A DNA stretch of 64,000 bases, taken from assembly GCA_000091205.1 (NCBI GenBank), contig AP006498.2; one strand, given 5' to 3'. This document shows, in pieces, positions 20,282-60,194 of this stretch; the stretch's first letter is position 1; every line of letters begins with the position of its first letter. Both the position numbers and the translations under genes were made by a program. Source of the DNA: Cyanidioschyzon merolae (lineage: Eukaryota). The notes under the pieces were generated by a model. It made no database searches, was not told the DNA's origin, and saw only the letters and a program-made list of their open reading frames with translations.

Positions 20282-22564
20282 TGGCGCAGAACACCGGGCT
20301 GGTGCCGGGGCTGGTGCGGTGCGCCCCAGTGCGCGATGACCGCCCCCAGCAGGGCATTAGCCCAATAAACCCAGGTTCACGTCGCTGCATACGAGACATG
20401 TACTGAATCGAAAAGCCTCCCTAGACTTTTCCCGTAGACCAGTAGCGTCTGCTGCGAGCACGTTGCAGGTAACGGTGTCTGAGCGGGTCAGGTCTGGAGA
20501 GATAACGAGCTTCTGATTGGCAAACGAACACGCGCCATGCCGCGCGCAAAGCCCTGGGCATCTAATCGAGACGAGGGTGTTTTCCAGAATATGTCCAATA
20601 AGATCCCACTTTACTTTCCATGGACAGAACGTAGCTCCTGACGAGGGATTCTCGTGCCTGGCAGCGGCCGACGTCTCCTTTCAATCGACAGAGCATTCGT
20701 ACAGACCAGGAGTGCGTGCAGTTGCACGATGAGGATCGGCATCAGCGATAGCGTTCCACCAGACACCATCCATACTTGCGCTTGGAGAAACTGGTCGATG
20801 CGTATGATGCGCTGAGCGCCGTGCATGCTGTGAGTATGTAGAGCGCCAGTGCGCGCGCAGTATGGAGGCGGAACCGCCTCGCCGTGCCACCGAATGCATC
20901 GGCTCGGAGATCCCGATATCAGTGGGTTCAGAGTGCAACCATGCGCACTGGACTTGATGGCAGTCGTGCGATACCCGTGTCAGCATAAGGAGGAACATTG
21001 AACTGCTCGAGATATTGCTGCTTTTCGTTTTTTCTTCAATTTTTTAGGATGCATCGCCTCGGCATTCGGGGTGCAGCCTTAAGGCGTTGTGCATTCAAAC
21101 GTAGGTTGAGGAATCTTGGTCGTTTTCTCGGAATGACGCATTGGAGTCAATGCCGATGGACATGATTACGTTACCGAAATCAACTTGATTCGCGACGCTC
21201 TCGACCGATCGTCCCTAAAATAACCGAGAACACTATCCAGTACACAGGAGCGAGCCTCCGCGATTCTCGATTCCTGATGCATAGCTAGTTCAAACGACCC
21301 GTACTTCAAGTTTTCGATATTTCTGTTTCATGGGAATTTGTGAGCACAGAGCTTTGCGTCGGCGGAACGGCTGGGGGAAAATATTCGACGTCTTTGCTTC
21401 ACGACGCGTTCACGAGCTCACGCCGAACGTTCACTGGACGCGTCACCTCAAATAATCGATGCCGTTCGAGAGACAAATCATGCTCGGTTTGCGGCCGGCG
21501 AAGATACTGCATTCGACAGCGGCATGATACCGCTCTCTAAGTATGTCACTTGTGCTTCCCTGTGTCTCTTCTTTTGTTGATGGAATAGGGTTTTGGACTC
21601 GGACTTGGGTAGTTGCAGCGATCGCTCCTAATGGAGCGTGCGTCGCCACGCTGGACAAGACGCGCGTGACTGCATCGGAATTTCTAGACTTTTGCAGATG
21701 CCTGGATTTTGCTTCCGATACATATTCAATCATGGACAGCATCGCATTCCACGAATCCTGCATCGAATGGAACAGCGTGCGCTTGCGCGTCCAGCGGTCA
21801 GCGTCTTCGCCGACGGGATCGCGGAGAAGATGCCCTTAATCCCCGGGTACGGGTACGGGTGCGGAAGCGGAGCAAGTCTTCAACTGGAGCTGTGTGTATC
21901 CGTCTAGTCTGCGTTCCAGGCGATGAAGCAAGCGTTCAAGCGCCACAGAATGGCGCGCGCTGAGATACAGGTATGATGGACAAACGGGAGCACCTGCGTA
22001 TATTTCATGGACACCGCTGCAATGAGCGCACCAAAGCTCTCTACAAAGAACATGAAAACGGCAAGCAAAATGCAGATCGCTAGTTCCGCTCATGGAAGAA
22101 CTTCGTTTATGACTGTTGAAAGCAGTAAAGTCGGAACTCTGTTGCCGCCATCATCATCCGTCGAGTGCCGACGCTGCAGCTGGAGGGACGACAGTGATCC
22201 GCGACTTTCAAGCCAAATACAAGCGGAAGCGAACGGGAACAGTTGCAGCAACATCCCGTCAAGGCTGCTGCTCATGGCTCTGGGACGAGATCCGACCATC
22301 ATGGGTCTGAAAACCCGTGTGACCGAAGTGCACCCGTCCCATGTTTCGAACATGGCTGCCGTGCAACACTGCTGTTTGGGAGCGCAGTGTCTGCTTTTTT
22401 TGGTTAATGGCAGCAAGCGCACATTCGCGATAAACCATGCTGGGCTCGTTCATCAGACATCATACAGAATATTCGCCACTATCCGTTTGCGGAGGATTCG
22501 CCAGGATCGCAGAACTGCGGTTCATTGATGCCGACCGAGTCGTCTCTATACAAATCGCGGCATT

Positions 22565-22850
22565 CTAAAATGCTCTTTGTCGAGTATAGCTCCATTTCAG
22601 GATTTCATTCGTATGCTGGATCATGACGGCATCCTAGCATGCTCTTTGTCGAGTATAGCTCCATTTCAGGATTTCATTCGTATGCTGGATCATGGCGGCA
22701 TTCTAGCATGCTCTTTGCCGAGTATAGCTCCGTTTCAAGGTTACAGCAGTTTGCTGGATCATGACGGCATTCTAGCATGCTCTTTGCCGAGTACAGCTCC
22801 GTTTCAGGATTTCATTAGTCTGCTGGATCATCGTCCGGATATATCATTCG
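22565..22850. repeat. Minisatellite of about 69 bp x4 (GCATGCTCTTTGTCGAGTATAGCTCCATTTCAGGATTTCATTCGTATGCTGGATCATGACGGCAT...).
   Basis: The GCATGCTCTTTG anchor recurs at 22637, 22707 and 22776. ORF 22577..22885 is merely the translation of this repeat. Confidence 0.85.
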
Positions 22851-24070
22851 GTCGTCAGCGTATTCCGCGGCTCCGTTCCGACTAGAGCAAGTGTGTGTCG
22901 CTGCGCTAGCGCAGCTTCTGCGCCGCACTCGTTGGCCCCCTTTTTCCTCATGCGCTTCCGAAAATCACTCATTGAGACGCTCAGAGAGTTTCAGTAGGAT
23001 CTTTGCGCATTCGGGCTCAAAATGCCTCACTACTAGCCACTGCTCGCTTGCGATTCCCTCTACCGTCCGATGCTGGTGGCAGCGCCTTGCACCACGGGAG
23101 TACCCGCAGTCCGTCGTCGTTTGCGCCAACGGTGCACGTTTCATACTGAGACCCACTTTCGACGCGCTCGGAGAAGCAGGACGACGATGTCTGCGTTCAA
23201 GCCGAGCAACCACAGCTCTGCGCTAATGCCGAGAGCCGGGCCGGACGCCGCAGCATGCGGAACGACACCATGCTGCGTCGCGCAGCGGCAGCACGAGTGT
23301 AAGAGCCAGCAGACACCGGTCAGGGACCTCGAGATATGCCTCCAAAGTGGCTACCAGGACCCGCTTCGGGAAATATGACTCCGTATGCGGCCGGAGCTGC
23401 AGCATGGGAGAACCGTAGCCAAATGACCGAACGATCGCTCGCTGTTTACAGGGGAAATTTGTTCGGAAGCCAACGAAGCAAACACGAGGTTTCAAATGAA
23501 AGGCGAACAAGCAATTGAAAAAGAAAACAGGTTACCGACTCCTTCCGCTGCCTTAGTCAACATGCCTGCACTTTGGAGCAGAAAACTGCAGATGATTCGG
23601 TGAAGCAGCGAGCGGCAACGTCGTCTCTACTCGCCCCGCGTATTCGACGTCGGCAGTGGCTACGGTTCGGATCCGTTCGGATTCAAACCGGCATCCATCA
23701 GCCGTTTACCTCCACGCTGCCGCATAGCGGACGACAAGCGCACTTTCGAGCATGCAGCTATTCACTGGCGCGCTGCGCTCACGGGCATCGGCGTGAAACG
23801 CATGCGGTGGCATCCATCGGCCACGAAGACGCGTACCTAAACCTCGCAGCAACTGGGATATGGGGCCGACAAGACGTTCCCTCACATGACTCCTTCGACT
23901 CGCAATGCAGAAACTTCACGCTGGGCTGGAGCAGGCCTCCAAAGCATGCCTCACATGGCGCTTGCAGAGCGGGATGCATACGCTGCTGTTTCCGCTACCT
24001 GGCTCGCTTAACGCATTCACTTGGCCGCAACATCCCTGAAAGCCGAATGCGGCGCCATGACGTGCATGCG

Positions 24071-24838
24071 CTACAAGGAAGCACGCCATGGCCGAGCCTG
24101 CGCCCCCAGAAAACCCGAAACGGATTCCACTCGATTCACCGCGGCAGTTTGAAGCGAACGCTCCCCATGAGTTTCCGGGCGATGTCGCTGTCTAACGAAC
24201 AGCGCCGTTGCATCCGCGTACACCCGTTCACGAGCGGTATCGCGACGAGCAGCCTCTAGCGGCCGCTGCAGCTGCAGTGCGCAGGTGTCCGTCGACTGGG
24301 CAAGTGCGCCAGCGTCCACGAGTCGTGACATGCCGTAGCACTTGCGCCGCGCCGGCTCCCTATCATGGACATAGGCCAACGCCAACACGTACGAGCCCAG
24401 TGGGACAATCTGCCGATAATTGACAACGAGCTGTGCCGTGACATACCCGTCCGGGTCCGAACGCGGGTTTGTCGCCATCCCGATGCTCGCGTCGAGGAGC
24501 GAGGCGATGGCGCCTCCGTGGACGCCTCCGCTCGGGCCCTGCAGGTTGCGACCCACGTACGCTGCGATAATCGCTCCGGGAACTGCCACTTTTGCCTCTG
24601 TTGAACTTTGATCCGATATGGAGCAAAAGCGAGCCTCTTTCTGTGACAAGTCATCGCAGACCGCTGCTGGCAACAGGTACGCTACTCGCTGTTGCAGCGC
24701 ATGCGACAAAAAGTCCGGGCGTTGTGCTCCTAACCAGCTGGCTCTCGGCACTTCGCGCAAACCATATCGCTCTTCCAGTCGACGGACAAAACATTTCCAC
24801 GCCTCAAGCGAGGGCAGTGTATCCTCCGTGAACGCCAT
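24071..24838 (-). CDS. Hotdog-fold acyl-CoA thioesterase (PaaI/THEM2 4HBT family), 255 aa.
   Basis: The ATG at 24838 is verified. The motif QGPSGGVHGGAIASLLDASIGMA is typical of PaaI-like thioesterases. Confidence 0.6.
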   Translation of the reverse strand: MAFTEDTLPSLEAWKCFVRRLEERYGLREVPRASWLGAQRPDFLSHALQQRVAYLLPAAVCDDLSQKEARFCSISDQSSTEAKVAVPGAIIAAYVGRNLQGPSGGVHGGAIASLLDASIGMATNPRSDPDGYVTAQLVVNYRQIVPLGSYVLALAYVHDREPARRKCYGMSRLVDAGALAQSTDTCALQLQRPLEAARRDTARERVYADATALFVRQRHRPETHGERSLQTAAVNRVESVSGFLGAQARPWRASL

Positions 24839-24949
24839 GGCGTCCAGTATGTCAGCTTCGAGAAGCGCAATGGCGCTGAATGAGTGCTTGCATCTGGAGC
24901 GTCGGGAACGCGGCGAGAACGTTCCGCGAACACACAGGGTAAATGGGTA

Positions 24950-27900
24950 CCGACGTGCAGACGTCTCCCAGTGTTTTTTGACCGGCCATCTACTACTGCC
25001 TCCAACTTATTCTCATCTAGTTTGACTTTGAGAGGTTGTCCAACAAAGTAGGCTCTCGACAGCTCGGGAGGTCTTTTTTCTCCATCACCACACATCTCCT
25101 GATATGGATAGCAGCATGAAAGTCACGATTCACAAACTCGATACATTTCTTGCCGCCGATGGTGGTTGTACTCAGTAATGGAAGGAGTCCTCGAACTTTC
25201 GCCCTCCATTCCATTTGCTCTGCAGTCAAGGCTCCGTACGTTTTTATATAACCTCAGGATTCCGCTGACACTTTTGCATCTCGACCCTCTGAAGTGTGCA
25301 CCGAAGCTCTTGGTGTATAAACGATGCTCGGAACTCATCTATGGGTACTGTGACAAATCGCCTCGCACACTCCGGGTACGTTCTTGGCGTTGCAGCTGGT
25401 GTGCTCTCTTTTTTCGACCCCCAGCGCCCTGCTCCGTATGCTACGACCAGCCTCTGACTTTCATCTCCTTTGAGGGCGCTCAACTCATTGAAAAAGTTCG
25501 CGAATGCACGCTGCTTCCCACAGTACAAGTTCAGACGCGGACGAGCCCGCCTGGGCATTGTATATTCTTTCCACAGCGCATTGCCATGAGCAACGCGAGT
25601 TTTGATGAATTCTCGAAAAGCTCGAAAGTCCGCTCCACGACTGGTAACATCGCGAATAGCTTCCAGGTGCTGTTTCGTGCCTGGATTCCATTTCTCAATT
25701 CTCTTCCTCGCACTCGTGAATCCCGATTCTCGATAGTATCTCGCCCTCGAGAACCTCAAAAGACGCATGTCTCTCTGGAAAAAGTTACCGTTGATACCAT
25801 ATTCCGCACGCTTGGGTACAGCGTTGGTTATTGTAGTCGCGTTCTCCGGGTCCGCGCCAACGACAAACTCGTTCTCCTGTACCTCCTGCGTCGCGGAATC
25901 CGCCTGATCGTTTTCTGCACGATTCGTCACAGGCGATATCGGAAACGGACCAGGAGGATCCGCTTTCAAGCGCCGATAGTGTACACACATGGCTACGCCA
26001 TCGGCTTCGATCATCCCAGTGAATACCTTTTGCTTGCTGGCTTTGAGACGCTTGAAGTCGAAGATATTCATCCAGTGCGTCTCCCGGTTTTCACCGGTGA
26101 ACTCCTCCCTGCTGACATCGAACTCCGGGCTGATCTCTCTCATGATCCCGTAAAGGACGCCGGAGTCGATTGCCACAAAATGTGACTTGATGTTGCACAA
26201 CGGAACGACGTTGAAGCGCTTACCCATTAGGAAAGCCTCCCGTCTCTCCGTCTCTTCATTTTTTCCCCGACTCAGCTGCTCTTCGGCGTTGCGTTCGAGT
26301 TCTCGGTTCCGAAACAAGAAACAGCTTAGGATGACGGGATAACATCTTTTTTTCATTTCTGATACATTTTCTACGGGATTGACTGGCCCAAAACTGCACG
26401 GTGCTCCTGTATAGCCGCACGGATTACAGAAGCTTCATTTGTGCTGCTGTGTGACGTCTTCTTGTCGACGAATTCGATCTCCTGTCCACTCTGGCGATCG
26501 TTCGTGGTACCATTGATGATGGCCCACATCCCTTTGCGCGAGATGCCCGGGTAGAGCGCAAAGATAGAGCGTACCACGAAGCGTTCGCGGTTCACGGTCA
26601 GATGGCTCTTCAGGTTCTTCAGGTACTTCATGGGCACTTAGAACTAAATATTCGAGTCATGCCTGTATCGAGTACCGTTGAAGCGGTACTTGGGGCATTT
26701 TTCGTGGAGGGCATGTACTCGCGCATTGCGCCTCTACGCTTTCCCCGTGCCAAACATCAAGCGACGAATAAAGGTCTTGTCGAAAAATTCTTCCGGAACC
26801 TCTTCTGTTTCCATGCCCGTCACGTCGCGATACATATCCCTCGCGAGATGCATCAGTCCTACGGCAGCGTCTCATACACTCATAGAGTGCGCCTCGAAAC
26901 GGGTTCTGATGGCCTCTTGGGGCTTTTCCCTGTGCGGTTCCTTGATGTGTTTCAGAAGACAGGCTTTCACCAGCATCTCGTAATATGATCGTCTTTCTCG
27001 CATCCATTGACGTCGGGCATCCCGCTGTCGCTTCTTCGACCTGTCTCGTTCCGCTTTGCTCGGCTCTGTTTTTCATTTTTCTCCGGCAGCCGGCGACGCC
27101 GGGCCTCCAGCATCCTCCACTTCCATTTCCATTACTTTCCAGTGCTATGATAAGAATGCACTTTGGAAGCGTCTACTGTAAACTACGAAAAATCACTTGA
27201 CTAGAGTACTGTAAGGGCTGAAACACGAATGAATCGCAAGACTATACTTTGCTATGACGTCAACGCAAATACGACTTGAACCTAAGGTACAACAACAAGT
27301 CAGCGAATGATCAGGATCGCAATTCCCTTCAAAAGCGAGATACGCGTCGAGTCTGATGCCTGCCAGATATGGAGATGCGGGTATCGACCGCGCTATATAG
27401 AAAAATAGGGAGAGATACTAGCCCCTAACCAGCAACTAGATAACAGTTTGCTCCCGCTCCACGGAAAGCATTGAAAGAGGGAAACGTTCTCCGTATTTAC
27501 GAAAGTTTATCGCCAAAGCGGAAGCGCCCTAGAGACGGACGAGTCAACGGTGATTGTACTTTGTAGGCATCTATAGTGCCGGGTGCTGAAGAGAGATCTG
27601 AGCAGAACGTCTGCAACGAAGATTACGCTGAGAAGAGCAGCGAACAGGATGCATCTAGACATCGCCCGAGACCCGATCGTCTCCGAGCATACCGCTTCGC
27701 GCTGCCGCAGGCAGTAGGCAGCAGGCCTTTCTGCACGGCTTTCCAGCTCCCAGAATGATCATGAATCCCGATGCCGTGTCGGGTGAACGATACCTCCAGC
27801 TGACGTCCTCAGTCATATGGCAATGCCTCGCAGTCTCTGTGCAGCATTCGAATCATCGGTATAGGCACTTTTGCTGACCATCAAGGCAACCTCGGTGCAC

Positions 27901-31499: not shown

Positions 31500-31884
31500 A
31501 CTCAATGGGCCTCTATGCAAAACATTCTAGACCTGCATGTGGTAACGCAATGAGGCGCGAAGCGCTGTGCGGAACAACGTTACCGGCGAGCACGCGGATA
31601 GCGGCACCCGCGGCGGCGATGCAATTTCGGGATCGCCTGCGAATTATTACACGAACAGGGTCGTTGAGCATCTTGCTCATCATCGAAGCGTTCCTCGTGG
31701 CTGCCCGTTCACAAAGTCTTGGATGCTGCTCGTAGACAGCGTCGCCGTCCATCACTCTAAAGCGGTCGAGGAGTTCGTGGCTGAGACTGGCGTTGAGCTG
31801 CTCCTCGTGCCAGCCGATTCCCGCTGGCGCAAACCGGTCGAAGGCAGCTTCTCTGTTGTCGAGCGTTATTCTTACATTCGTTGA
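31500..31884 (+). pseudogene. Degenerate DDE(D) transposase C-terminal remnant, Tc1/mariner- or IS630-like.
   Basis: WMLLVDSVAVHHSKAVEEFVAETGVELLLVPADSRWRKPVEGSF follows the pattern h-DNA-x-pH-x-K-x-V-x-E-x-L-x-6-L-x-PpySPdLnPiE of mariner DDE_3 domains. Confidence 0.35.
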
Positions 31885-32164: not shown

Positions 32165-33460
32165 ATGCCATTTCGCGAAGTGAACGACAAGGCGATGAAG
32201 GATCTGGCCTCTATGGACAAGCACGAATCATTCGAGCAACTTTGCTCTGAGCATTTGTGGAGCTCGTACAGGCTTGCTCCATACCTGGCAAAAATGCGGG
32301 CAAGTTTAGATGGATTCCAGAGGACCGCTGTGTATCCATCTGCACGGATTTGGTGAAACTCGTGAAACCGGGACCTGAATCGAACGACGAGACTCATTTT
32401 CAACCATTCAATGTGGATGAAGAGAAAGGCAACCTATTGGGTGTGGATCCCGTGTCCGAACACATCATGGCCGTTGCCGTACCCGTAAACCAACAGTGCA
32501 GGGGCAAAGCCCTGAACGGAAACCAGACGACGATACGTAACTTGTTAAGGGCCCGGTATGATCGCGAGTCGGGCGTGATCGATACCAGGAGACCTACCGA
32601 CAAACGGAATGACAGTGCCAAAACCCCGAAGTCGACGCTCTGAGCACTGCATCGTGCAGAGCGGAATCCCCTGTTCGCCTCATTCAGAGTGAATATGAGC
32701 GTCGAAAACAGCTCATGCGGACGATGCTTGGTAAGAATACCCGAGAGCACGCTGTGGGTTGCCAACGATATCGGCTATGCGGGGGCGAGATGCATGTGTT
32801 CGAGAACTTGATCAATGTGCTTGGAAATGAAATGAACCGCAAGATGCGTCATTCGGTGGCAGCCCAAAGCGCTCAACGTACTGTGGCCCGCCAACGTAGC
32901 GCCTGTGCTCCCTCTACGAGCCCGCACAGCGCGTGCAGGATTCGATGCTGCACGATTCGCACCGATGCGTTCGGCACGACATCGGCACTATGGAGGCAAA
33001 TGTGCACACCGTGGTTAATAGACGTGGAGACGGGGACGAAACAGAGCCTGGATGCACGATGTGATGTACGGGAAGCTGACCGCAGGTCAGAGAGCGAAGC
33101 AATCGAAGGTGCGAGGCTTGCGATGCGGTGATTCCACCATCCCGACTACGTTCGAGAACGCGCTGCACCGAGACTTGAACGCCTCGATGACGACCCGGAA
33201 ATAGCATGCGCTTCGCGAGCGTCCAGCAGCTTTGTTTCGAGCGTTGCTTCGAGCGAATCGTTTTGTGCGCTGTATGGGTACTGTGTTGAAACGCACCAAA
33301 CGCACGATGAAGCGATTCGGCGGCCAGGGGAATCGACGTTGGATTCTGGCCTTGAGCACGGTACTGATATGGGACTGTTCGGCTATCCAGCAAGGCTGCC
33401 GCACCGACTTTATCAGTCCCGAAGGATTCAACTCAGCTAAGGATGAACGAAGATAGTGTT
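32165..33460 (+). pseudogene. Highly degenerate fifth Fanzor-like copy. RuvC-I is LLGVDPVSEHIMAVAVPVN, followed by TTIRNLLRARYDRESGV, then YRLCGGEMHVFENLINVLGNEMNRK and FGGQGNRRW.
   Basis: These blocks align to copy 2 as [56 protein letters not shown] and VVAYGAGRW. The fragments are spread over several frames, and no RuvC-III is recognisable. Confidence 0.45.
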
Positions 33461-34052
33461 CCATGACTCGATATGACGAATTACATCGTAGCCGCCGCAT
33501 GCTAGACTAGGAATGCGTTACGAAAGGCACAATATCTGCAATACTGGACTCGAGGTGGAAAGTTGTAGCGCTGGTGTGCGTCTATCACCGGACAAAGTGC
33601 TGTTCCTGGACGACGGCAGACGCAAGAGCATCTGCTGCCTCTGGCATCGTATTTCGGCGCGGTGGACTCGGGACCGGCTCCCCTGCAGACTCGACCAAGT
33701 TTCTGAACAAGAAATGGCATTTTATGCCTTTCATGAAACAGCGCCCTGCCGTCGGACTGTCATCTGGTTCTTCCTCGAGGCACCTCGAAGAAGCGTTCCC
33801 AGGACTAGAAAAAAGCATGCGCACAACCGAGTTGCGCTCAGATGCCTGTGTACACCAGGGTCGCTGACGAGCTGGACGTCCATGAACTGCACAGACTCGT
33901 CGAGTCATCGCAGCGGAACTCGAGTGGATCGCACCAACGAGGCTCTCACGAGCCACCGCGACGACTCTCTGTGATCAAAAAGGTGCTGCGATCGGTACGG
34001 AAGCAAGCGAGCAACTGCCTCCAGACGCTGCACCCAATCGTTTGCTCGCTGA

Positions 34053-35480
34053 TCAACTGTCTGATGTGTGTGGGAATCCTTCAATGAAACGTCGATAGAT
34101 GGCAAGCTTGTCGACGACCTCTCGCCACAGTGCGACTGGGCCCTCTGCACCCTGCGATACGGCCTGTGCTCGATACTCACCAAGACGCTTCGAGATATTC
34201 CAGGAGAACCGAGACCGTTCACGCCATGCAGTGCTTTTGCCAGCGCTCGTACTGGCGTCCAGGTCTCGTTCGGGTGACTCTGCAACAAAAGGCGGTGGAG
34301 GTACACGCGGACCTAAGATCAGCTCCGCCGACGCTGACGCTACGTACCATACGCCTTGGTGAACTTCTCTCTCGAGTTGGCCAGGTTCCCAGCCACAGTA
34401 ACCGCAGAAGAAACGAACTCGATCGGGGCGAGCAAGCGAACCGCGGCGCGCCAGTTCAGTAAGGCGACCAAGTCCACCGCAATAGACGCCCCCCGGCACA
34501 ATTTCGTACGCAACTTCGTCAGCTGCGCTCCCCGGCAGCTGCTGACGATCGTTCGATGCCAGCAGAGAGCTTTCATCATGGAGCACCAGCAGGGAATCGA
34601 GACCAACCGGGCCACCCAGGTAGAGCGCCTCTCTGCCAAAAACACGCCCCAGGTCGGTGCCCGCCAGAGAGCTAACGAATGATATGCGCTGGGCTGCGCG
34701 GCGGTTCATGATGACCCCCGTTGTACCGTCACTGCCGTGCTCCAGAACGAGAATCACTGTTTGTGCAAAGTACTGCTGTTCATTGAGGAAATGTTTCGGG
34801 GACGCAACCAGAATGTTGCCGGTTTCGATCGCAGTAACTGGATGCACCCAGCGCATGTCGATATCAGCACCAGTCCATTCCATGGAATTCATGCGAGGTG
34901 TCTCCTGCACACGCTGCGGTGAAGCGTGCAGTGCGTCCCCGGTCGAGGAGCTGGGGTCAAGCAGTTCGCCTGCTTTGCTTGCACGGTTCTCGGTCGCAGC
35001 GTTCTCAGGTGACTCAGCCGGTGCACTCCCTTCAGTTTCGACTGTACCGAATGCGTCACCGTATTCGAGCTCTCGCCGCAAGAGTTGCATTCGGAACGCG
35101 CGCCAGTCACGGAGACGCTCGCGAACGTGTGCCTCGTAACCTGCGTGGCGTCGCTGCGACCTCCTCCTCCTCCTCCTCGAGCTGTCAGGAGTGTTCGCGT
35201 CAGCACCAGCGCCGTGGTTATGATCCTGCTCTGGAGGCTCTCCAGTATTTGAGGCACACGCACGCACACGGAACGAGATAGGCACCGTTCTTGGACTAGA
35301 GACGCTCCCAGACGACCCGTAGCCGAGCCCCGAGCCTGACCATTGACAAACGGATAACCGTCGGTGCCTCTGGAGCGACTGCTGCTGGACCCTGGTCCGT
35401 TGTCCCCGACTGGAACAGTTACAAACTATCCAAGTCATGTACAGGTAGAGCCGGTTTGCCTGAAAGTTCGCAGCGTGCAC
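34053..35480 (-). CDS. YqgE/AlgH-family protein (DUF179, UPF0301) with a basic N-terminal extension. The ORF start is a GTG. The first ATG is at about 35438, or in an upstream exon.
   Basis: GNILVASPKHFLNEQQYFAQTVILVLEHGSDGTTGVIMNRRA...LYLGGPVGLDSLLVLHD...RFFCGYCGWEPGQLEREVHQGVWY matches the DUF179 consensus (LiA.P...d.nF.rsVill.eh...Ga.GlilNrp...GGPv.....lh...F.Gy.gW..gQLe.Ei..g.W). Confidence 0.6.
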   Translation of the reverse strand: MHAANFQANRLYLYMTWIVCNCSSRGQRTRVQQQSLQRHRRLSVCQWSGSGLGYGSSGSVSSPRTVPISFRVRACASNTGEPPEQDHNHGAGADANTPDSSRRRRRRSQRRHAGYEAHVRERLRDWRAFRMQLLRRELEYGDAFGTVETEGSAPAESPENAATENRASKAGELLDPSSSTGDALHASPQRVQETPRMNSMEWTGADIDMRWVHPVTAIETGNILVASPKHFLNEQQYFAQTVILVLEHGSDGTTGVIMNRRAAQRISFVSSLAGTDLGRVFGREALYLGGPVGLDSLLVLHDESSLLASNDRQQLPGSAADEVAYEIVPGGVYCGGLGRLTELARRGSLARPDRVRFFCGYCGWEPGQLEREVHQGVWYVASASAELILGPRVPPPPFVAESPERDLDASTSAGKSTAWRERSRFSWNISKRLGEYRAQAVSQGAEGPVALWREVVDKLAIYRRFIEGFPHTSDS

Positions 35481-35679
35481 GTATCAAAAGCGCTTCCGAA
35501 GAACGGAGGCAAGTGAGGCGGAAAGCGAGCACCATACCGGTGGCAGTTACGCTTCCGCATACGCGAATCGCAACCGCAGAACGGGCAGCAGCAACGGCAG
35601 GGCGTCGATGATCGGGACACGGCCGTTGCACCACCGGCGCTGGTGCGCATTCATCAGCCGTTGCGCCTCTCGCGCTGAA

Positions 35680-36310
35680 AAGACGCGTTTCCACGGATCA
35701 GGGGATCCCAGATTGCCGGATGGACGGGTATTGGCATTCGGGAATGCGTCCAGGATGCTGCAGCCTATCTCCAAGTTCCATTGCTTGTACTTCCTCTCGG
35801 AAATACTGGTTGTTCTGTGGGTTCTATCGTGAACAGAGTGCCTGCGTCGCTGCTCCCGCCGTAGCGTCTATATCGCTGGAGTGGATGCAGCACGGAGATA
35901 GAGCTGTGCTTTGTCGTACCACTGAGGGTATCTGTTTGAGGAACGCTTCACCTGAAACGGTGTCGGGATACATAGTGAGTTTGGGAGCCAGAAATCTGTC
36001 CAGACAAGCCTAGTGCCTGCGACAGCTCGAATTGATATTCTGGGCGTCCACTGCGACCCGGGCGACGCCCAGATGCAGCGGAACTGCCCCGAGTCTCAGA
36101 GTCAACTGCGTTGCGTACGAGTTGCTCAGATCTCGCTAGAGCACCGGGCACGGAGGAGAGCATGGAGCACGAGCCTGGCAGACTCGCGCGGCTTGCAGGA
36201 TCTGCTACCTATACGGTAAACTGTCGACAATATGGAAACATTTTCCCGCTTTTAACGTTTATCTCAGAGGACGAAAGAAATCGTTGTATCGTTGCTAGTT
36301 GGTGAATCGT
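35680..36310 (+). repeat. Left arm of a long inverted repeat of about 650 bp. It is about 98% identical to the reverse complement of 38850..39537, and equals the 5' module of the element.
   Basis: Sampled about 200-nt stretches have only 3-4 mismatches. The ORF track shows mirror-image ORF pairs (36013..36219+ versus 38982..39188-, and others). Confidence 0.85.
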
Positions 36311-36791
36311 TTTTGCTCTTTGTTTGCATAGCGCGGTCGATACGCGCACCTCCATATCTGGTAGTTACGAGATGCGACGCGCATCTCGCCGTTGAAGGGA
36401 AACGCTATCAGGATAATTAGCAAGGTGTTCGACCCTACAAGTTGTACTTGCGTTAAAGCCATCGCAAAGTGTATTCCCTAAATTCAGTTGTGTTCCACTC
36501 TCAAAATAGTATATTCATATGCGTTTTCGCAGCTTACAACAGAAACCTTCGAAGTGCCTTTTATTTCAAAAATAAAAAAGTTATGGAACTGGAATTTGAG
36601 GATCCCGGAGGGCCGGTGTCGCCGACTGCCGAAGAAAAATGAGAAGCAGAGCCGAGCAAACAGGAACTGGAAAAGACGAACAAGCAGAACGGGGAGGCCC
36701 GACGTCCGGAGTTGTACGAAAGACGACAGTACCACGAGATTGCGGAGTAAGCCGGATTTCCTAAACATATCATGGACCGTACAAGGAAAAG

Positions 36792-38700
36792 TTGCAAGAT
36801 GCCATCAGAACCCGTGTCGAGTCCTTCTCTAAGAGTGTTCGTAACGCTTCTTTAGTGCTGATGCATATGGCGAGGGAGATGTATTACGACGTTACAAACG
36901 TCAAAACAGTCGAGGTTCCGCAGGAATTTTTAGACAATACCTTCATTCATCACCTGAAGGTTGGCGCAGGGGAAGCATCGTGGGGAAATGCGCGAGTACA
37001 TGCCCTCCAGGAAAGTTACACTGAATACCGCTTCAAGGTTACTCAATACAGGGGTGACTCGCGTATCTACGAGTACGGGGCGATGAAGTACCCCACGAAC
37101 CCGAAGAACCATATGTTCATGGACCTCGAACGCTTCATGATACGCTCCGTCTTCGCACTCTGCCCGGGTCTCTTGCGCAAAGCGATATGGAACATTATCA
37201 ATAGCATCACGGACGATCGCCAGCATGAACAAGAGATGAAATTCGGTAACAAGAAGAAATCACACAGTAGAAAGAATGAAGACTCTGTGATCCGTGCGGC
37301 TCTACAGGAGCACTGTGCGGTACTGGGGCTGCCGAATCCAGCAGAAAAGGTATCAGAGTTAAAGAGAGTTAAAGAAAGATTTTATATCTTCTTCCTGCTG
37401 TATTTCGTGTTTCCGAACCGAGAGCTCGAACTCAAGGCGGATATGGAGCAAGGTGTGGAAGAGCATGACGAGTCGTAGAAACGGAAGGCTGCGCTTCTTG
37501 GCAAGCGCTTCAATGTCATTCCATTATGCGACGTCAAATCACATTTTGTGATCATCGACTGCAGAGTCCTTTACAGCATCATGAAGGAGATCCGTCTGGA
37601 GTTCAATCTAAGCAACAGGGGGTTTACGGGTGAAAATTGGGAGACGTGCTGCAAGAAGATCCTCGATTTCAAACGCCTCAAAACGAGCAAGAATAAGGTA
37701 CTCACAGGCATCATCGAAAGCGATGGAGTAGCGAAGTGTGTACACTGTCGGCGGTTGAAGGTTGATCGTACTGGTCCGTCTTCCTTGTCGCCCACGGCGG
37801 AGCATGAACATGAGAAACTGGAGGATCTTGCGACGCAGGGGGTGCATGAGAGCGACTTTGTCGTTGGCGCGGACCCTAAGAATACGAATCTCGTAACCGT
37901 CGCAGCACCCAAGCGTGCGGAGGATGTTAACGACGGCAACTTACGTCATAACGACGTGCGTCTTTTAAAGTTCTCGAAAGCGAGATATTACCTAGAATCG
38001 GGAAAAATGAATGCAAGGAAAATAATTGAGACATGGAATGCAGGAGTGAAAGAGTACCTGGAAGCTGTGATCCAGGTGACGAGCCGCGGTGCGGAGTTTC
38101 AAGCTTTTCGGGAATTCATGAAACCTCAAACTGCTCATCAACAGGAGCGGTGGAAAGCGTATATCAAGCTCTGGTGGGCACATCAGCGAATGAACCTGGA
38201 CGGAGGCAAGCAGCTTGCATTCACTAACTACATCAATCAGTTAAGCACCCTCTAGGAAGACAAGGGTCAAATGCTCGTAAGAGCGTACGGAGCAGGGCGC
38301 TGGATAACCAAAACGGGAGCATACCTGCTCCGTTGACGCAGGGAGTACAAGGAGTGAGCATACCGTTCTGTCACAATACCGATAGATAAGTTCCGAACGT
38401 CCTATATACACCATGAACTGGGGGTGTACACGTCATTTGGTCGAGATGCAAAAGTGCCACCGGAGCGCTGGGGATATAGACAAGTACGGAGCGCTGACGG
38501 AAGAGCAAAGGGAAGGGACACGGAGGGCACAAATTTGAGGTCTACTTGCACTGGTGTATATAACCGGCTGCGGCAAGAAACGGATGGATTTTGTGAATCG
38601 TGACTTTAATTCAGTCGTCAATAAAGAGAGCTGTGCGTCGATGGATACAAGACCCGCGGAGCTGGCGCGACCCAACTTTTTGGGGCAACCGCTCAGGGTT
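36792..38700 (+). pseudogene. Fanzor-like nuclease gene of copy 3. It has a frameshift between 37478 and 37548 and further shifts after 38255. RuvC-I is FVVGADPKNTNLVTVAAP. The RuvC-III equivalent is mutated (RDFNSVVNK instead of RDFHAAINI).
   Basis: It aligns block-for-block with copy 2. The N-terminal region (QDAIRTRVESFSKSVRNASLVLMHMAREMYYD...) is open here, whereas copies 1 and 2 carry four nonsense codons in the same region. Confidence 0.65.
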
Positions 38701-38849
38701 AAATTATATGAGAGAAACTGAAGCCAGGAACAGGCGGCCGGTCGAGAAAGGCTGTTAGACGTCTGCACGTCGGTTTATACACACGCACGGTATCGGCGTG
38801 ATGGACGGAACGGCACGTCTAACAACGGGAGAGCGAAAGCAAGTGATGT

Positions 38850-39537
38850 GCAGCTATAGCGATGATCCACATGGTTGAAAAGGAACAGAGACGCACGATC
38901 CACTAGCAACGATACAACGATTTCTTTCGTCCTCTAAGATAAACGTTAAAAGCGGGAAAATGTTTCCATATTGTCGACAGTTTACCGTATAGGTGGCAGA
39001 TCTTGCAAGCCGCGCGAGTCTGCCAGGCTCGTGCTCCATGCTCTCCTCCGTGCCCGGTGCTCTAGCGAGATCTGAGCAACTCGTACGCAACGCAGTTGAC
39101 TCTGAGACTCGGGGCAGTTCCGCTGCATCTGGGCGTCGCCCGGGTCGCAGTGGACGCCCAGAATATCAATTCGAGCTGTCGCAGGCACTAGGCTTGTCTG
39201 TACAGCTTTCTGGCTCCCAAACTCACTATGTATCCCGACACCGTTTCAGGTGAAGCGTTCCTCGAACAGACACCCTCAGTGGTACGACAAAGCACAGCTC
39301 TATCTCCGTGCTGCATCCACTCCAGCGATATAGACGCTACGGCGGGAGCAGCGACGCAGGCACTCTGCTCACGATAGAACCCACAGAACAACCAGTATTT
39401 CCGAGAGAAAGTACAAGCAATGGAACTTGGAGATAGGCTGCAGCATCCTGGACGCATTCCCGAATGCCAATACCCGTCCATCCGGCAATCTGGGATCCCC
39501 TGATCCATGGAAACGCGTTTCGGAAAAGCGAAAATCT
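38850..39537 (-). repeat. Right arm of the inverted repeat. It is a second, inverted copy of the 5' module placed immediately after the copy 3 tail. It may be the right TIR of a TIR-type transposon carrying the nuclease gene.
   Basis: See the left arm. The outer end CCATGGAAACGCGTTTCGG mirrors the left terminus. Confidence 0.8.
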
Positions 39538-40589
39538 ATTTGATAGGATTTGCGCGCGCGCGCGCGCATCATATCGCGCGCCATCATTTAACGATGCTCC
39601 GCTCTGAGCGCCTTGCTGCACACGAGCTGTCGTTCCGCACCAAATGCTCTATACCCATGGATAACTGGAGCAGCGATTATGAGTCGGATACAACAGTGGG
39701 CCTACAAAACATAGCCTTCCGAGTACTGAGTGTTCTGGGTATTGGGCTGTGGTTGCACTGCAAGGGACGTCGTCGGCGACGGCTCAGACGTGCTGCAAGC
39801 AACTCGCAAGGCCGCGAACAGGTAGCCGTAAGCTCCCACGACGCTCAATCATTTCCAAAATACGTTTCTGGGCAACAGATGGTTTCGAAAAGTTCCAGTG
39901 TCAAGCGTCAGGAGGGCACGCAGGGCTGCGACAAAGACGATAGCAGAATCGAAGGGGCGACGTCGCCTTGGTCACATGACGCGTGGCAACGGCTGCAGCT
40001 TGCCTGTCAGCGCGCCCAACAGCAGTGCATCTCGCTCGAGGACGAGCTGAAACGCGTTCTTCGCGAGCGAGAGGAACTCCAAGAGGCCCTCTCCATGGCA
40101 CGCGGCGCTCTGCAGCCCTGTGAGCAGAGCACGGGCTGCGCTGCACATGCAGCGCCTCTGCTTGCATCGTTACCGCCGCCGCGCAAGGCAGTGGACCAAA
40201 AGCCCAGCAAACCAGAGGCTCAACGAATGGCGGGTGCTACTGTAAACCTCGACGACGCTACGCAGCCGTGGCTAGAGCATACGACTCCGGTGCCGTCGGA
40301 CCAGTCGAGTCCGTTCCAACAGGACGAGGCGGCGTCCGGAGCCCATTCGCCTGCTGCTCGTTCTGGACCTGTGCTTCCGGACACGCTTGGTGGACTCAGG
40401 CTCGACCCTGTCGAAGTCGCTGCCGCCATGGCGCTCCGCCAGCGTGGATTTGGTGGAGGCCTGCTCAACGAGGCCTCCATCGATGACGTTCGACGACGAC
40501 TGGGTTTTGGTGGTAGTGCTCACTCGTGCAAAAACGCTGCACAAGCACCGACGCATGCTATGGACGCCTTCACGTACTATGGAGATTAA
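39507..40589 (+). CDS. Hypothetical protein with one TM segment, a coiled coil and a low-complexity tail. There is no recognisable family. The 5' part overlaps the repeat arm, so the true start is probably an internal ATG.
   Basis: This is a long ORF in GC-rich DNA. Only the coiled segment CISLEDELKRVLREREELQEAL looks protein-like. Confidence 0.2.
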   Translation: METRFGKAKIYLIGFARARAHHIARHHLTMLRSERLAAHELSFRTKCSIPMDNWSSDYESDTTVGLQNIAFRVLSVLGIGLWLHCKGRRRRRLRRAASNSQGREQVAVSSHDAQSFPKYVSGQQMVSKSSSVKRQEGTQGCDKDDSRIEGATSPWSHDAWQRLQLACQRAQQQCISLEDELKRVLREREELQEALSMARGALQPCEQSTGCAAHAAPLLASLPPPRKAVDQKPSKPEAQRMAGATVNLDDATQPWLEHTTPVPSDQSSPFQQDEAASGAHSPAARSGPVLPDTLGGLRLDPVEVAAAMALRQRGFGGGLLNEASIDDVRRRLGFGGSAHSCKNAAQAPTHAMDAFTYYGD

Positions 40590-40973
40590 AGCGCAGGGCT
40601 CATGTGCGCTCCACGAAGAGCATTCGCGGGCTTCCAGTGTGGAATCGTCCCAGTCGCCGTCCATGACACTTCACCACCGACTGAACGCTGCGATCCGCGC
40701 ACTATCCATCGAAAATTTCGACTGCATCCTTGAACTGCAAACTGTCCCCGAAAATACCAGCTCCTTTACAGTTATGGTTCCGAGCAACTGGTCAGCGGCT
40801 GCACCGAGTCGCCCTGCTAGGCACCGCATGCACGCGGAAGCAGATGCCGAGGATCAACGGTCTATCAGGCACCTTTGGCCGGTCGCCGGCCACGGGTGTA
40901 TGCGGTTTCCCCACTGCACCCGAAATGCCGAACGAGAACTGCTTCCCCAGCGCCACGGCACGTTGCAAGCGAC

Positions 40974-43199
40974 TCAGCGTTCCCGCGTTTCTGGTTCCAG
41001 ACCGCAGGGACTTGCCTCTTGGCGTCGTGCTCGCTCCCGCTGCAATAGCTGCCTCCCGATGACTTCGTTGTTCGCAGCAGCGGAAATAGTCTCCTCAGCG
41101 AACTCTAATGAGCGCGACAGGCCAAACCGATCAAGCAGACGTCCCCAGAGACGGAAATACGTTCCCAGCGCCGAAATCACTAAAGAGCATGGATAGAAAT
41201 AATTGAAAGCCTTACCAAATAGAGGAACAATATGCATAGAACCCATGAGCGTTTCAAACGCGGTAACTGGAACAGTCGACGAGTCTTGTCCCGAATGCCG
41301 CATCAGCTGCGGGTATTGATACAGGAGCAGCCTCGCGACAGCTTCTCGATTCTCGTGCAATAAGAAAATCAGGTGGTAGCAAAGAGGAAGCAGGAAACGA
41401 CTCATGAGCATCGCATTCAGACAAAGCATTTGACCATCGACGTATCCTGGTACCAGTTCATACCAACGGTAGATCTGCAGGTGGAACACAGCAAAGTACA
41501 CCAGCGAGGTCAGCGTGCAGACAAGGCTGAGTGCCATGGCTTGTACGCCCAACGGCGACAGCGGTAGACTATGAAGTGCCCGAGCGAAGGGAGAGAAGCT
41601 GCGCGGCGGCGTCAGCAGCACAGTCCAGATGGTCAGCTCGCTGAGACACACCGCACTTGCAACGATAAACAACACGACCGCCTGCACGCGGAGACAGAAC
41701 GGCTCGCCATACGCTCGCCAGCGCAAGGCCAGAGACCGTTGCATGCCGTCGATCCAACGTTTGGTACCGACAGCGGCATTCACGGAACGTTCGCATTCGG
41801 AGATATAGATCCGCTGGGGCGAGCCAGCTCCAGCACCAGTAGCATGCTTCGTCAGATGGGGCATGCTCGTCGCATCACCATTCGAAAGCGCTCGGTCGTG
41901 AACAATCCTCATGCTCCGTTCCGGAGACAAGTCTTCACCGGCGTCGTGAAACGAGCCCATACGGCTAGCGGTTGCTCCAGGTGATTCCCCTGCCCTGCAA
42001 GCGTACACCAGTGTAGACGGCATCCGGTCCACGTCGCTGGTCGATACGGATCCCGTGGAAAGCACTCCGGCACATGCTGAGCTCGCTGCAGCGCTCGAGC
42101 TACATCCCGCCGATCGCCACTGAAGCAAATCCTGCAGAAAGAGCGCTCGTTGCGAGATCCGTTGCCACAGGTACTCGATACGCCGGTACTCGAGCACTGC
42201 GCGACGCACCTCGACAAAGAGCGTCCCCAGGGATGCCGATTCCGCCATTCGGGTCGCTCGTGGGGTGGCCGAACTCCATGTTTTTTGTGGCTGCTGGCCT
42301 ATCTCTAGATCCGATGAATGCAGCGGTACCAAATTCAACAGCGTCTCTATACGAGAACAGAGCTCCTGTCGATAAGCGTGTGTCGCGGAGCGTGCATGTC
42401 CAGGCATATGTGATTGCTCCTGTGACTGCAAGGTCTGGTCATCGGTGCAGCCAATGCCTAGCACCGCTGCTTGCAGGCGGAGTCGACTCAAGCTCTGGAG
42501 TGTTTCAAGGTGCCGCGCATGAAGCTCAGCGATGCGGATCGCGTAGGCTCGGAGGCGACGTCGCGGATCGCTTCGTTCCCACAGGGTGCGCGGTAGCTCT
42601 ACGAGTCCGAAACCCAGAAAGATCATCAAGAGAAAGAGACCGAATGCATTATTCAAACCGATAATCGTGGCACGCCAGGTCTCCAGTTGCAGGCCGTGAT
42701 GCCGCGGAGAGCGCACCGCTGCAGCTAGGGCACTCAGCACGACAGCGAGCACAGCCAGGGCGATAAGCTGCGGGCGAAGCGCTTTGCGGACACGCTCTCG
42801 GAGCGGGAGGTGTTCCAGAGAAATGTTCGACTGAACTAGAGGCAGCAGAATCCAGCCAAGCACCAGTGAGGTCCAGTAGAGCGCCTGCCAGGTGGCCAGC
42901 AGCGCTGCCGGACTCAAGCTCGGTGGAGCACAGTTCCGCAGGTGCAGGGAGAGGTCCTCGCCACTTCGTTTGTTGAGGTACTCACAGCGACGGAAAAGCG
43001 TTTCCGCGAGATCAGCAGGTAACAGGATCAGTGCAAGAAACGAGAGAAACCACGCTAAGCCTACCGTCGTGTAAACGTACCACGGTGTACCAAGGCCAGG
43101 CAGCCGTGTCGGGTAACGGACCAGCAGGTACAGCGTCAAAAAAAGCACTGCTGGTGCTTCTGCAATGTAAAACAAGCTCGTACTCAACCACGGCTGCAT
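40974..43199 (-). CDS. LMBR1-like multi-pass membrane protein (LIMR/LMBRD2 family), 741 aa.
   Basis: The ATG at 43199 is verified. There are about 9 hydrophobic helices in two blocks, separated by a long hydrophilic coiled loop (RRRLRAYAIRIAELHARHLETLQSLSRLRLQ). This is the architecture of LMBR1-domain proteins. Confidence 0.45.
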   Translation of the reverse strand: MQPWLSTSLFYIAEAPAVLFLTLYLLVRYPTRLPGLGTPWYVYTTVGLAWFLSFLALILLPADLAETLFRRCEYLNKRSGEDLSLHLRNCAPPSLSPAALLATWQALYWTSLVLGWILLPLVQSNISLEHLPLRERVRKALRPQLIALAVLAVVLSALAAAVRSPRHHGLQLETWRATIIGLNNAFGLFLLMIFLGFGLVELPRTLWERSDPRRRLRAYAIRIAELHARHLETLQSLSRLRLQAAVLGIGCTDDQTLQSQEQSHMPGHARSATHAYRQELCSRIETLLNLVPLHSSDLEIGQQPQKTWSSATPRATRMAESASLGTLFVEVRRAVLEYRRIEYLWQRISQRALFLQDLLQWRSAGCSSSAAASSACAGVLSTGSVSTSDVDRMPSTLVYACRAGESPGATASRMGSFHDAGEDLSPERSMRIVHDRALSNGDATSMPHLTKHATGAGAGSPQRIYISECERSVNAAVGTKRWIDGMQRSLALRWRAYGEPFCLRVQAVVLFIVASAVCLSELTIWTVLLTPPRSFSPFARALHSLPLSPLGVQAMALSLVCTLTSLVYFAVFHLQIYRWYELVPGYVDGQMLCLNAMLMSRFLLPLCYHLIFLLHENREAVARLLLYQYPQLMRHSGQDSSTVPVTAFETLMGSMHIVPLFGKAFNYFYPCSLVISALGTYFRLWGRLLDRFGLSRSLEFAEETISAAANNEVIGRQLLQRERARRQEASPCGLEPETRER

Positions 43200-60163: not shown

Positions 60164-60194
<31 letters not shown>

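Follow-up and report, generated by a model that had tools for sequence, protein, structure and literature searches.

The near-identical inverted repeats that bracket the third copy of a Fanzor1 element in a 64,000-nucleotide stretch of DNA (the window) from chromosome 16 of the red alga Cyanidioschyzon merolae 10D are most probably two separate, old TE-N2_CMe units, which flank the dead element and have been homogenised by ectopic gene conversion, rather than the termini of a transposon. The assignment to strain 10D is confirmed by four host proteins in the window that match it exactly. The family itself has been described: CMe-1A is a roughly 3-kb Fanzor1 element with about 150 old copies and neither terminal inverted repeats (TIRs) nor target-site duplications (TSDs), and its 5′ 635 bp constitute a separate repeat of about 70 copies called TE-N2_CMe (Bao & Jurka 2013, Mobile DNA 4:12, PMC3627910; names as in Repbase). 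The elements in our data are 3.1–3.3 kb long, and the size and architecture of copy 3 fit this publication, which identifies it as an old, dead CMe-1A copy; likewise, the 5′ module of about 650 nt matches the published description of TE-N2_CMe. The agreement extends to the organism, the Fanzor1 protein, the lack of TIRs or recognisable TSDs, old copies that are about 70–80% alike, and a 5′ segment of about 635–650 bp that also occurs as a separate repeat. The locus is an ordinary and largely known feature. That publication is silent on a CMe-1A copy enclosed by inverted TE-N2 units, on conversion among copies, on alternative 5′ leaders and on any polarity with respect to host genes.

A repeat scan returned a single inverted pair, 35683–36321 and 38880–39518 (639 nt, 97% complementary), with 2,558 nt between the arms. 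Global alignment and a list of differing sites refine this to an ungapped tract of 617 nt, in which positions 35683–36299 (plus strand) pair with the reverse complement of 38902–39518 (minus strand) with ten mismatches, comprising eight transitions and two transversions. This corresponds to 98.4% identity, or roughly 3.2 mismatches per 200 nt. A preliminary description of the window had reported inverted repeats of about 650 bp and 98% identity around copy 3, with 3–4 mismatches per 200 nt, and these values hold; its coordinates (35680–36310 and 38850–39537) give the correct location but are slightly too wide, and the outer-end sequences that it gave are close to those observed, which are AAGACGCGTTTCCACGG (left arm) and GAAACGCGTTTCCATGG (right arm). 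At the 3′ edge of the tract identity falls in a sharp step from 98.4% to 54%, with only 13 of the 24 nt directly beyond the tract matching (11 mismatches; Fisher p = 4e-12 versus the tract). The arms also differ in the 15 nt located 5′ of the tract, where each carries a different 5′ T-run segment.

This high-identity tract is internal to two TE-N2_CMe-type units, both of which align end to end with an nhmmer profile that was built solely from metagenome copies and hence is independent of the window arms. Specifically, the left unit, which is fused to copy 3 as its 5′ module, has a plus-strand envelope of 35659–36331 (aligned 35668–36325, profile positions 11–658), and the right unit, on the minus strand, has an envelope of 39539–38871 (aligned 39527–38878, profile positions 11–656). 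The 3′ boundary of the right unit (...GTCTCTGTTCCTTTTC) coincides with that of solo copies at metagenome loci L015, L032, L043 and L056. By its sequence, the right arm represents an entire solo copy of TE-N2 in reverse orientation, situated about 100 nt past the last recognisable sequence of the element. An earlier suggestion that a solo module had inserted head-to-head was right about the solo unit, but the orientation is tail-to-tail, with the 3′ ends facing each other. The right unit appears to have existed before the conversion, as suggested by 15 nt on the 5′ side and about 24–65 nt on the 3′ side that lie outside the tract, the 3′ difference being statistically clear.

Comparison with other modules reveals how unusual the similarity of the arms is. 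The module occurs once, in sense orientation, 5′ of each of the other three copies in the window, as the preliminary description had claimed: at 8769–8124 for copy 1 and 28046–27394 for copy 2 (both minus strand), and at 60270–61129 for copy 4, where it carries an internal tandem of three 105-nt units. These remaining module pairs are 55–79% identical per 100-nt window, and among 23 non-redundant modules pairwise identity has a median of 69% and a maximum of 91%. Because of this spread, the 98.4% identity of the arms lies far outside the family distribution, which upholds the earlier statement that they are much closer to each other than to other modules.

The module and the nuclease also occur apart. 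Solo modules without a nuclease are present at L015, L032, L043, L056 and L007, and many nuclease cores lack a module; frequent occurrence of this kind had been named in advance as a sign that the module is a separate repeat that clusters with the nuclease rather than a TIR of it. The module exhibits no 3-nt periodicity (phase ratio 1.07–1.23 versus 1.26–1.64 in an ORF control), its copies share no common reading frame, and Rfam yields no match in positions 35000–40000. The flanks of five solo units and of copy 3 reveal neither a TSD nor common flanking words. TE-N2 may be a retroposon on the opposite strand, with the T-run as a poly(A) tail and short copies as 5′-truncated forms, but most of the ‘short’ copies represent a diverged subfamily rather than truncations, and the expected TSDs are not seen. 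A guide-RNA (omega/fRNA) gene would be expected as a conserved, structured RNA next to the ORF, at the element end that borders the target; the module does not fit this, as it lies 5′ of the ORF, is Rfam-negative and occurs without a nuclease. It is instead the 3′ tail of about 100 nt that forms the conserved, structured part of this family.

The gene between the two units (36583–38773, plus strand), delimited by tblastn with the intact relative P0001 and by motif coordinates, is a decayed Fanzor1 gene. RuvC-I is represented by VVGADPKN (37860–37883), an AYGAGRW motif is located at 38283–38303, and RuvC-III reads NRDFNSVVN (38596–38622), in which RD is kept and the residues that follow are degenerate, as had been noted. 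The tblastn alignment falls into two frames with five in-frame stops and 47–56% identity, indicating at least one frameshift. All four copies in the window are pseudogenes. The description of copy 3 as the most decayed is apt for its amino-acid identity, which at 47% for residues 44–667 of P0001 is the lowest over most of the protein, but copy 4 exceeds it in stops (seven) and frameshifts.

The characteristic Fanzor motifs GADPxN, VDEFRTS(Y)THHExGC...C and NRDFNAAINIR are found in the four-copy consensus and in the intact relatives P0001, P0037, P0039 and P0042, as is the C-terminal TnpB/Fanzor signature D...[TS][TS]-x-x-Zn finger...RD, although only two Cys and two His residues are visible in the zinc-finger stretch. 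When an AF2 model of a relative was compared with the PDB by using Foldseek, the top seven matches were solely SpuFz, GtFz and PpFz (E 2.7e-8 to 2.8e-5, 635–774 columns); the model is poor (mean pLDDT 54, TM about 0.2) and served for ranking alone. Motifs, fold ranking and the published description place the copy 3 nuclease in the Fanzor1 family. Searches of Pfam and of PDB sequences with single ORFs, a reconstructed 724-aa consensus and a nine-sequence profile gave no match, and the precomputed label PF26935 corresponds to DUF8286 and nothing further.

The ends of the nuclease ‘core’ carry structures of their own. A 5′ hairpin, GCGCG-gtcgata-CGCGC (36331–36347, plus strand), opens the core at the position where module-less cores start, and its stem seems, by eye, to co-vary between copies (GCGCTCggtGAGCGC, GCGCTCActGAGCGC). 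The last family-wide motif of copy 3 is GACGTCTGCACGTCGG (38758–38773), which is also where copy 2 homology stops, and it is followed by a spacer without detectable family homology (38774–38870) that separates the element from the right unit. Elsewhere in the family, a conserved, hairpin-rich tail of about 100 nt follows the ORF. A profile of this tail built from metagenome copies matches copy 4 alone (63634–63743), with copies 2 and 3 not matched, and RNAalifold predicts only four pairs in the tail with no covariation, because hairpin registers differ between subtypes. The copy 3 spacer was considered as the 3′ tail of that element; it gives no hit with the tail profile from metagenome copies and may be a diverged or alternative tail.

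This combination of terminal hairpins is reminiscent of IS200/IS605-type TnpB and Helitron2 elements, which have hairpins at both ends and no TIR or TSD, although neither TnpA nor a Rep/helicase partner was detected here. Guide RNAs of TnpB and Fanzor proteins are normally encoded after the ORF, where the 3′ tail of this family sits.

Both units lie beside host genes. The left unit has its T-rich end 237 nt from the 5′ end of an AlgH/DUF179-like gene (34053–35438, minus strand; Pfam DUF179; exact match to the 10D protein BAM81702, annotated ‘unknown transcriptional regulator’), which faces it. On the other side, the T-rich end of the right unit is 68 nt from the 5′ end of a host ORF of 331 aa (39594–40589, plus strand) when counted from its second ATG (360 aa from 39507, inside the arm), an orthologue of which was called in wild-strain contigs L083–L087. 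This polarity is family-wide: in 16 of 19 cases, both arms included, a host ORF has its 5′ end no more than 600 nt from the T-rich end of TE-N2 and facing it (binomial p = 0.004).

We propose that the two TE-N2 units arrived independently, one of them fused to copy 3, and that each came to lie with its T-rich end next to one gene start of the divergent host pair. As each would follow the usual polarity beside a divergent gene pair, the units would be inverted relative to each other. Ectopic (non-allelic) conversion between units 2.6 kb apart would then have overwritten 617 nt of one of them, and such conversion probably still recurs in the population. This would explain how arms of 98.4% identity, against a family norm of about 69%, have different unit termini, and the inverted repeat would be a side effect of homologous recombination between adjacent repeats. 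The preliminary description had offered recent gene conversion or recent transposition; conversion is supported, and transposition is less likely, since each unit has markedly different termini of its own, although a recently active TE-N2 subfamily may exist elsewhere in the 10D genome.

Contigs from wild strains, which are 98.4–99.3% identical to 10D, tie each arm to its unique flank. Two of them, L088 and L096, cover the left arm completely and continue into the core, and L087 reaches 531 nt into the right arm. These are short-read metagenome assemblies, most of which end inside an arm, and the contigs for the left arm derive from other samples than those for the right. The inner junction of the right arm (38774–38902) is seen in the 10D assembly alone, with no wild-strain contig over it on record in look-ups with internal ORFs. 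Across strains, the left and right arms show no fixed difference at any site, at least in contigs that are possibly chimeric inside the repeat, and sites 35764, 35810, 35817 and 35833 carry the same two alleles in both arms, a sharing that chimeric short-read contigs could mimic. Of the ten mismatches between the 10D arms, seven are private to the 10D left arm.

Mosaic similarity is also observed elsewhere in the family. For example, the cores of copies 1 and 2 are 95–100% identical and their modules 52–73%, and two L075 cores that are 78% identical overall reach 95.9% over the 3′ 1 kb. Gene targeting in C. merolae relies on homologous recombination, which is very efficient in this alga. Intrachromosomal conversion is known to cause concerted evolution of inverted repeats, as in primate Y palindrome arms, plastid inverted repeats and nearby yeast paralogues. 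The present locus resembles these in that the arms are closer than expected for copies of this age and the tract has sharp edges; in contigs that are possibly chimeric, differences also seem lineage specific and polymorphisms common to both arms. In contrast, the tract is much smaller (617 bp) and the partners are transposon-derived repeats, not genes.

The explanation that best survives beside conversion, though an unlikely one, is a single recent copying event with no earlier right unit, either a template-switch inverted duplication or a fresh transposition of TE-N2 from the left unit or a young master. It is compatible with the 98.4% identity, and strain-specific arm differences are expected if the event slightly predates strain divergence. 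However, the termini of the right unit fit the TE-N2 profile and not the left unit (3′ end 13/24, and another 5′ T-run), whereas a fresh copy would have identical termini and a random segmental duplication would bring no TE-N2 termini of its own. Furthermore, polymorphisms across the arms in wild strains, if not products of chimeric contigs, need repeated exchange, and no other young TE-N2 pair was seen among the 23 non-redundant units.

A broader reading, to which we give little credence, is that TE-N2 and the Fanzor1 core are separately mobile and repeatedly joined, in either orientation and promoter-proximal, and that near-identical tracts would reflect the repair of breaks made by active Fanzor1 copies guided to family sequences. 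The patchy tracts in question are the two copy 3 arms, the cores of copies 1 and 2 and the L075 3′ ends. If true, a eukaryotic transposon family would be homing, or being homogenised, through the action of its nuclease.

It is very unlikely that selection keeps the arms alike as promoter or regulatory modules of the two flanking host genes. Their position 68–237 nt from host gene starts and the family-wide polarity are what such a function would predict, but other TE-N2 units likewise placed by host genes are only about 69% alike, and purifying selection would not produce a sharp step from 98% to 54% or polymorphisms common to both arms. Column conservation over the 23 units is, by rough estimate rather than computation, near neutral decay.

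There is even less reason to regard the module as the terminal repeat of a TIR transposon that carries the nuclease as cargo, with copy 3 alone intact and the right TIR lost from the others, as the preliminary description had suggested. The attraction of this model is that one long, near-identical inverted pair brackets a nuclease gene, with the family 5′ terminus at the outer end of both arms, and that elements such as Mariner, Sola and MuDR are known to carry Fanzor1 genes as cargo (PMC3627910); a Tc1/mariner DDE_3 relic also adjoins another Fanzor relic at 31.6–33.1 kb. However, no near-identical inverted module lies downstream of any other window copy or at any of 81 wild-relative loci, including the non-redundant metagenome copies. 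The homology of copy 3 stops at the 3′ motif of copy 2 and about 104 nt without family homology precede the right arm, whose own complete TE-N2 3′ end points inward. In addition, the arms differ at their own termini and the family is published as lacking TIRs (PMC3627910). No TSD was found at either candidate boundary: the left flank ends in ...GTTGCGCC and the right flank begins with TCTATTTGATAGG, with no common direct repeat. The two longest ORFs between the arms carry no transposase domain, and no TIRs were found between the element's own 5′ and 3′ ends.

Downstream inverted modules at L007 and L010 are at best 70–81% identical, and a larger TIR-bounded transposon there was ruled out, since in L007 host genes (ATP synthase beta and a Nop10-like gene) occupy the interval between the element and the module. 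Long-TIR cut-and-paste DNA transposons with Fanzor1 as cargo, such as elements of the Mariner/Tc1 type or SPu-1 with its 33-bp TIRs and TA TSD, similarly hold a Fanzor1 gene between inverted repeats. Unlike these, the present inverted repeat occurs at one locus only, has no TSD or transposase, and its right arm abuts no recognisable element 3′ terminus and has its own 3′ end inward. The DDE_3 relic (31567–31884), the sole one found, belongs to a different, unique locus.

Finally, there is a negligible chance that the repeat was collapsed or made chimeric during assembly of the reference. Long near-identical inverted repeats are classic sites of misassembly, but the arms differ at ten sites and have different unique flanks, and the 10D genome is a finished, Sanger-based sequence. 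Among independent metagenome contigs, L088 and L096 run from the AlgH-like flank through the left arm to the core, and L082–L087 connect the right arm with the LMBR1/360-aa ORF flank.

Conversion between neighbouring TE-N2 units matters little alone, beyond removing the misreading of this locus as a Fanzor element with 650-bp TIRs. What the locus offers is a clean and probable case of ectopic conversion between adjacent repeats, one that can be dated, in an algal genome that is very compact and proficient in recombination. If borne out, the apparently separate recent histories of TE-N2 and the core, the fixed polarity of TE-N2 beside host gene starts and the conserved, hairpin-rich 3′ tail could help to classify the CMe-1A/TE-N2 family, and the same three observations could help to locate its guide RNA.

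The open reading frame landscape of the window is eukaryotic, and four host ORFs match C. merolae 10D proteins exactly (BAM81695, 81700, 81702 and 81704), while another (58586–60337) falls in one 90% cluster with BAM81710. The locus tag CYME_CMP presumably denotes chromosome 16. Four copies of one element of ~3.1 kb are present, each of which opens with a module of ~650 nt in sense orientation, as the preliminary description had it for copies 1, 2 and 4: copy 1 (8770 to 6585, minus strand, 3′ half missing), copy 2 (28046 to ~24949, minus strand), copy 3 (35683 to ~38773, plus strand) and copy 4 (60270 to ~63785, plus strand). All four are pseudogenes. Their consensus restores a protein of ~724 amino acids with GADPx...C...C and NRDFxAAINIR motifs, for which sequence searches of Pfam and PDB gave no match. 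A large protein search returned 45 relatives; almost all come from JGI metagenomes, and intact forms of 676–752 amino acids are among them. When the predicted fold of one relative (a low-confidence AF2 model) was compared using Foldseek, the seven significant matches were to solved Fanzor1 nucleases only (SpuFz, GtFz and PpFz).

The literature settles the identity of the element as CMe-1A, a ~3-kb Fanzor1 element of C. merolae with about 150 copies at about 80% identity to their consensus and with no target-site duplications (TSDs) that could be determined (Bao & Jurka 2013, PMC3627910). From the published description of TE-N2_CMe, the module therefore matches that unit, by description; both the element and the occurrence of its 5′ module as a separate repeat had been reported before. 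Within the module of copy 4, 60333–60654 is an internal tandem duplication (3 × 105 nt, copies 96% identical). The Fanzor1 ORF carries a 75–78-nt (25–26 amino acid) tandem repeat just upstream of RuvC-I, at 11146–11450 in L001 (one of the metagenome contig loci from wild Cyanidioschyzon-like algae numbered in our analysis) and at profile positions 2194–2273 in most loci; its copy number differs among copies, from 1 to 5. Thioesterase gene CMP034C (BAM81700) has its start codon within ~10 nt of the 3′ end of copy 2 (24838–24949), and the element end must therefore supply the 5′ untranslated and promoter region of this gene. Weak extra relics at 20744–20929 and 4477–4714 are a TE-N2 fragment (E = 1e-10) and an element 5′-leader fragment (E = 5e-12).

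Nucleotide profiles from the window copies were used to scan 80 metagenome loci encoding relatives, together with L001. Across these 81 loci, many cores (the nuclease part that follows the module) begin at profile position ~720–746 without a module, including some with another common leader (gcgatgcgaacacgcatgtgccaaggcggggtgtcggacacgtgtccttcatcgatcgg...) upstream (L006, L012, L022, L024, L027, L035, L068, L069, L079 and L080). Solo modules distant from any core are at L043 16299–16942, L015 8694–9329 and L007 13800–13224. Elsewhere the module lies in inverted orientation immediately 5′ of a core (L003, L017, L040, L044, L055, L061/L066 and L072), abutting it at differing core positions (profile 721, 744, 773 and 809), or follows the core 3′ end in direct orientation (L015 and L017). 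Solo units have in common a T-rich 5′ boundary, TTTTTTTTCGATGACAAAACGTTT, and a 3′ boundary, ...TCTGTTC(T/C)TTTTTC(TA). The family has a modular 5′ region, and the module often occurs without a nuclease gene, which counts against the preliminary reading of it as part of the nuclease element. The module lacks codon periodicity and a reading frame common to copies, has no match in Rfam, and by a rough estimate, not a computed one, its columns are about as conserved as under neutral decay from a master copy.

Two further structures accompany the core. At its start (36331–36347 in copy 3, and equivalents), a hairpin has stems that vary among copies (GCGCG/CGCGC, GCGCTC/GAGCGC and GCGCTCA/TGAGCGC) with pairing that appears, by eye, to be kept; it recalls the hairpins located subterminally in IS200/IS605 and Helitron2 elements. 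After the ORF, a conserved, hairpin-rich tail of ~100 nt (GGCGTCTGCACGTCAG TTGGAGACGTTTTGTCTAGGGCG..CGCCACTACTGTACACC..CGTCGTTCGACTTTCGAACGGCGT) is present in copy 4 (63634–63732) and at the 3′ ends of about 45 metagenome copies, and is undetectable in copies 2 and 3. Its terminal hairpin shows, by eye, compensatory changes between two subtypes; RNAalifold gave no consensus structure for the tail, which is the expected place of a candidate Fanzor guide-RNA scaffold.

A repeat search of 34000–41000 found only one inverted pair, 35683–36321 and 38880–39518, whose 639-nt arms are 97% complementary and 2558 nt apart. Global alignment and a site list define an ungapped tract, 35683–36299 against the reverse complement of 38902–39518, with 10 mismatches in 617 nt (98.4% identity), which site by site are eight transitions and two transversions. 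All other module pairs in the window show 55–79% identity per 100-nt window, and 23 non-redundant modules drawn from the window and related contigs have a median pairwise identity of 69% and a maximum of 91%. The near-identical inverted repeats reported around copy 3 are therefore real and far beyond chance, and the arms are indeed more alike than the modules of other copies.

A TE-N2 profile for which metagenome copies alone were used aligns essentially end to end with both units: the left unit, which opens copy 3, at 35668–36325 (profile positions 11–658), and the right unit, downstream of copy 3, at 39527–38878 (positions 11–656). The right unit is therefore a complete solo TE-N2 rather than a truncated element, which supports the solo-module reading offered in the preliminary description. 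With its 3′ end directed inward, at that of copy 3, the right unit stands tail-to-tail to the element. Homology to the rest of the family is last seen in copy 3 at GACGTCTGCACGTCGG (38758–38773), the same end point as in copy 2.

Recent gene conversion between the arms, also raised earlier, is supported by the limits of the 617-nt tract, which lies within both TE-N2 units. The 24 nt next to it on the 3′ side also belong to TE-N2 and match the family profile, yet the arms share only 13 positions there (11 mismatches in 24 versus 10 in 617; Fisher p = 4e-12), and the 15 nt on its 5′ side also differ (left, TCTCGCGCTGAAAAG; right, TTTTCCGA--AA). A conversion tract between two already present, diverged TE-N2 copies would leave two such different sets of termini; fresh transposition or plain duplication would not. 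The proposal of a transposon with ~650-bp terminal inverted repeats (35680–39537) and the nuclease as cargo is not supported, given no TSD at either candidate boundary of copy 3, no transposase between the arms, ~100 nt without detectable family homology between 38773 and the right unit, and, at the inverted downstream module of L007, arms only 70–81% identical around host genes (ATP synthase beta and Nop10-like).

Orthologous wild-strain contigs, 98.4–99.3% identical to 10D, tie both arms to their unique flanking sequence: L088 and L096 span the entire left arm, from the AlgH-like gene on one side to the core on the other, with the same orientation as in 10D, and L087 extends from the side of the LMBR1/360-aa ORF 531 nt into the right arm. 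When 10D and the wild strains are taken together, no fixed difference separates the left arm from the right, and seven of the ten mismatches in 10D are confined to its left arm. Four sites (35764, 35810, 35817 and 35833) carry the same two alleles in both arms, in short-read contigs that are possibly chimeric in the repeat. With that caveat, the lack of fixed sites and the alleles common to both arms would be a signature of concerted evolution.

Orthologous contigs of wild strains also conserve a strongly diverged second Fanzor relic (32257–33120; LLGVDPVSEH...RARYDRESG), 373 nt downstream of a Tc1/mariner-type transposase relic (31567–31884; Pfam DDE_3, E = 1.4e-6, 28.7 bits against a cut-off of 28.6). 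This pair, which has no other occurrence among the loci examined, may be what is left of a Mariner element with a Fanzor1 gene as cargo; only one Fanzor1 family is listed for C. merolae (Bao & Jurka 2013, PMC3627910). Tandem repeats at 22554–22898 (69-nt unit, about five copies) and 11648–11886 (~80-nt unit, three copies) are unrelated to the inverted pair.

Patchy near-identity is found at other linked copies. Copies 1 and 2, which lie in direct orientation at a distance of 19 kb, have cores that are 95–100% identical (6585–8070 versus 25852–27340), whereas their modules are only 52–73% identical; the high-identity tract begins about 40 nt inside the core (GGCATCAGACTCGACGCG), and this mosaic is probably another conversion or a partial duplication. 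Linked copies in wild relatives are likewise patchy: two cores in L075 are 78% identical overall and 95.9% over their 3′ 1 kb (1458–2478 versus 7147–8171), and a pair in L073 is 90% identical at the contig end (1606–1820 versus 5958–6172). Efficient homologous recombination, on which gene targeting in C. merolae relies, is a known trait of this alga. The inverted pair at copy 3 is most likely another product of a known process, ectopic gene conversion between nearby repeats; an origin of the conversion tracts in DNA breaks by still-active Fanzor1 copies is very improbable.

The inverted orientation of the arms agrees with a polarity of the family. Of the non-redundant TE-N2 units, 19 have a host ORF ≤600 nt from the T-rich end, and for 16 of these the ORF is divergent, its 5′ end facing the unit (binomial p = 0.004); the 16 have T-rich ends at 35659, 39539, 8786 and 60254 in the window, or lie in L013, L014, L032, L039, L043, L056, L060, L063, L067, L070, L074 and L078. 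The two host genes flanking copy 3 are divergent, with 237 nt between the AlgH-like gene (minus strand) and the left unit and 68 nt between the 331/360-aa ORF (plus strand) and the right one. Each unit follows the family polarity, and the two are therefore inverted relative to each other. This polarity suggests either promoter-proximal insertion of TE-N2 in a fixed orientation or promoter activity of the unit.
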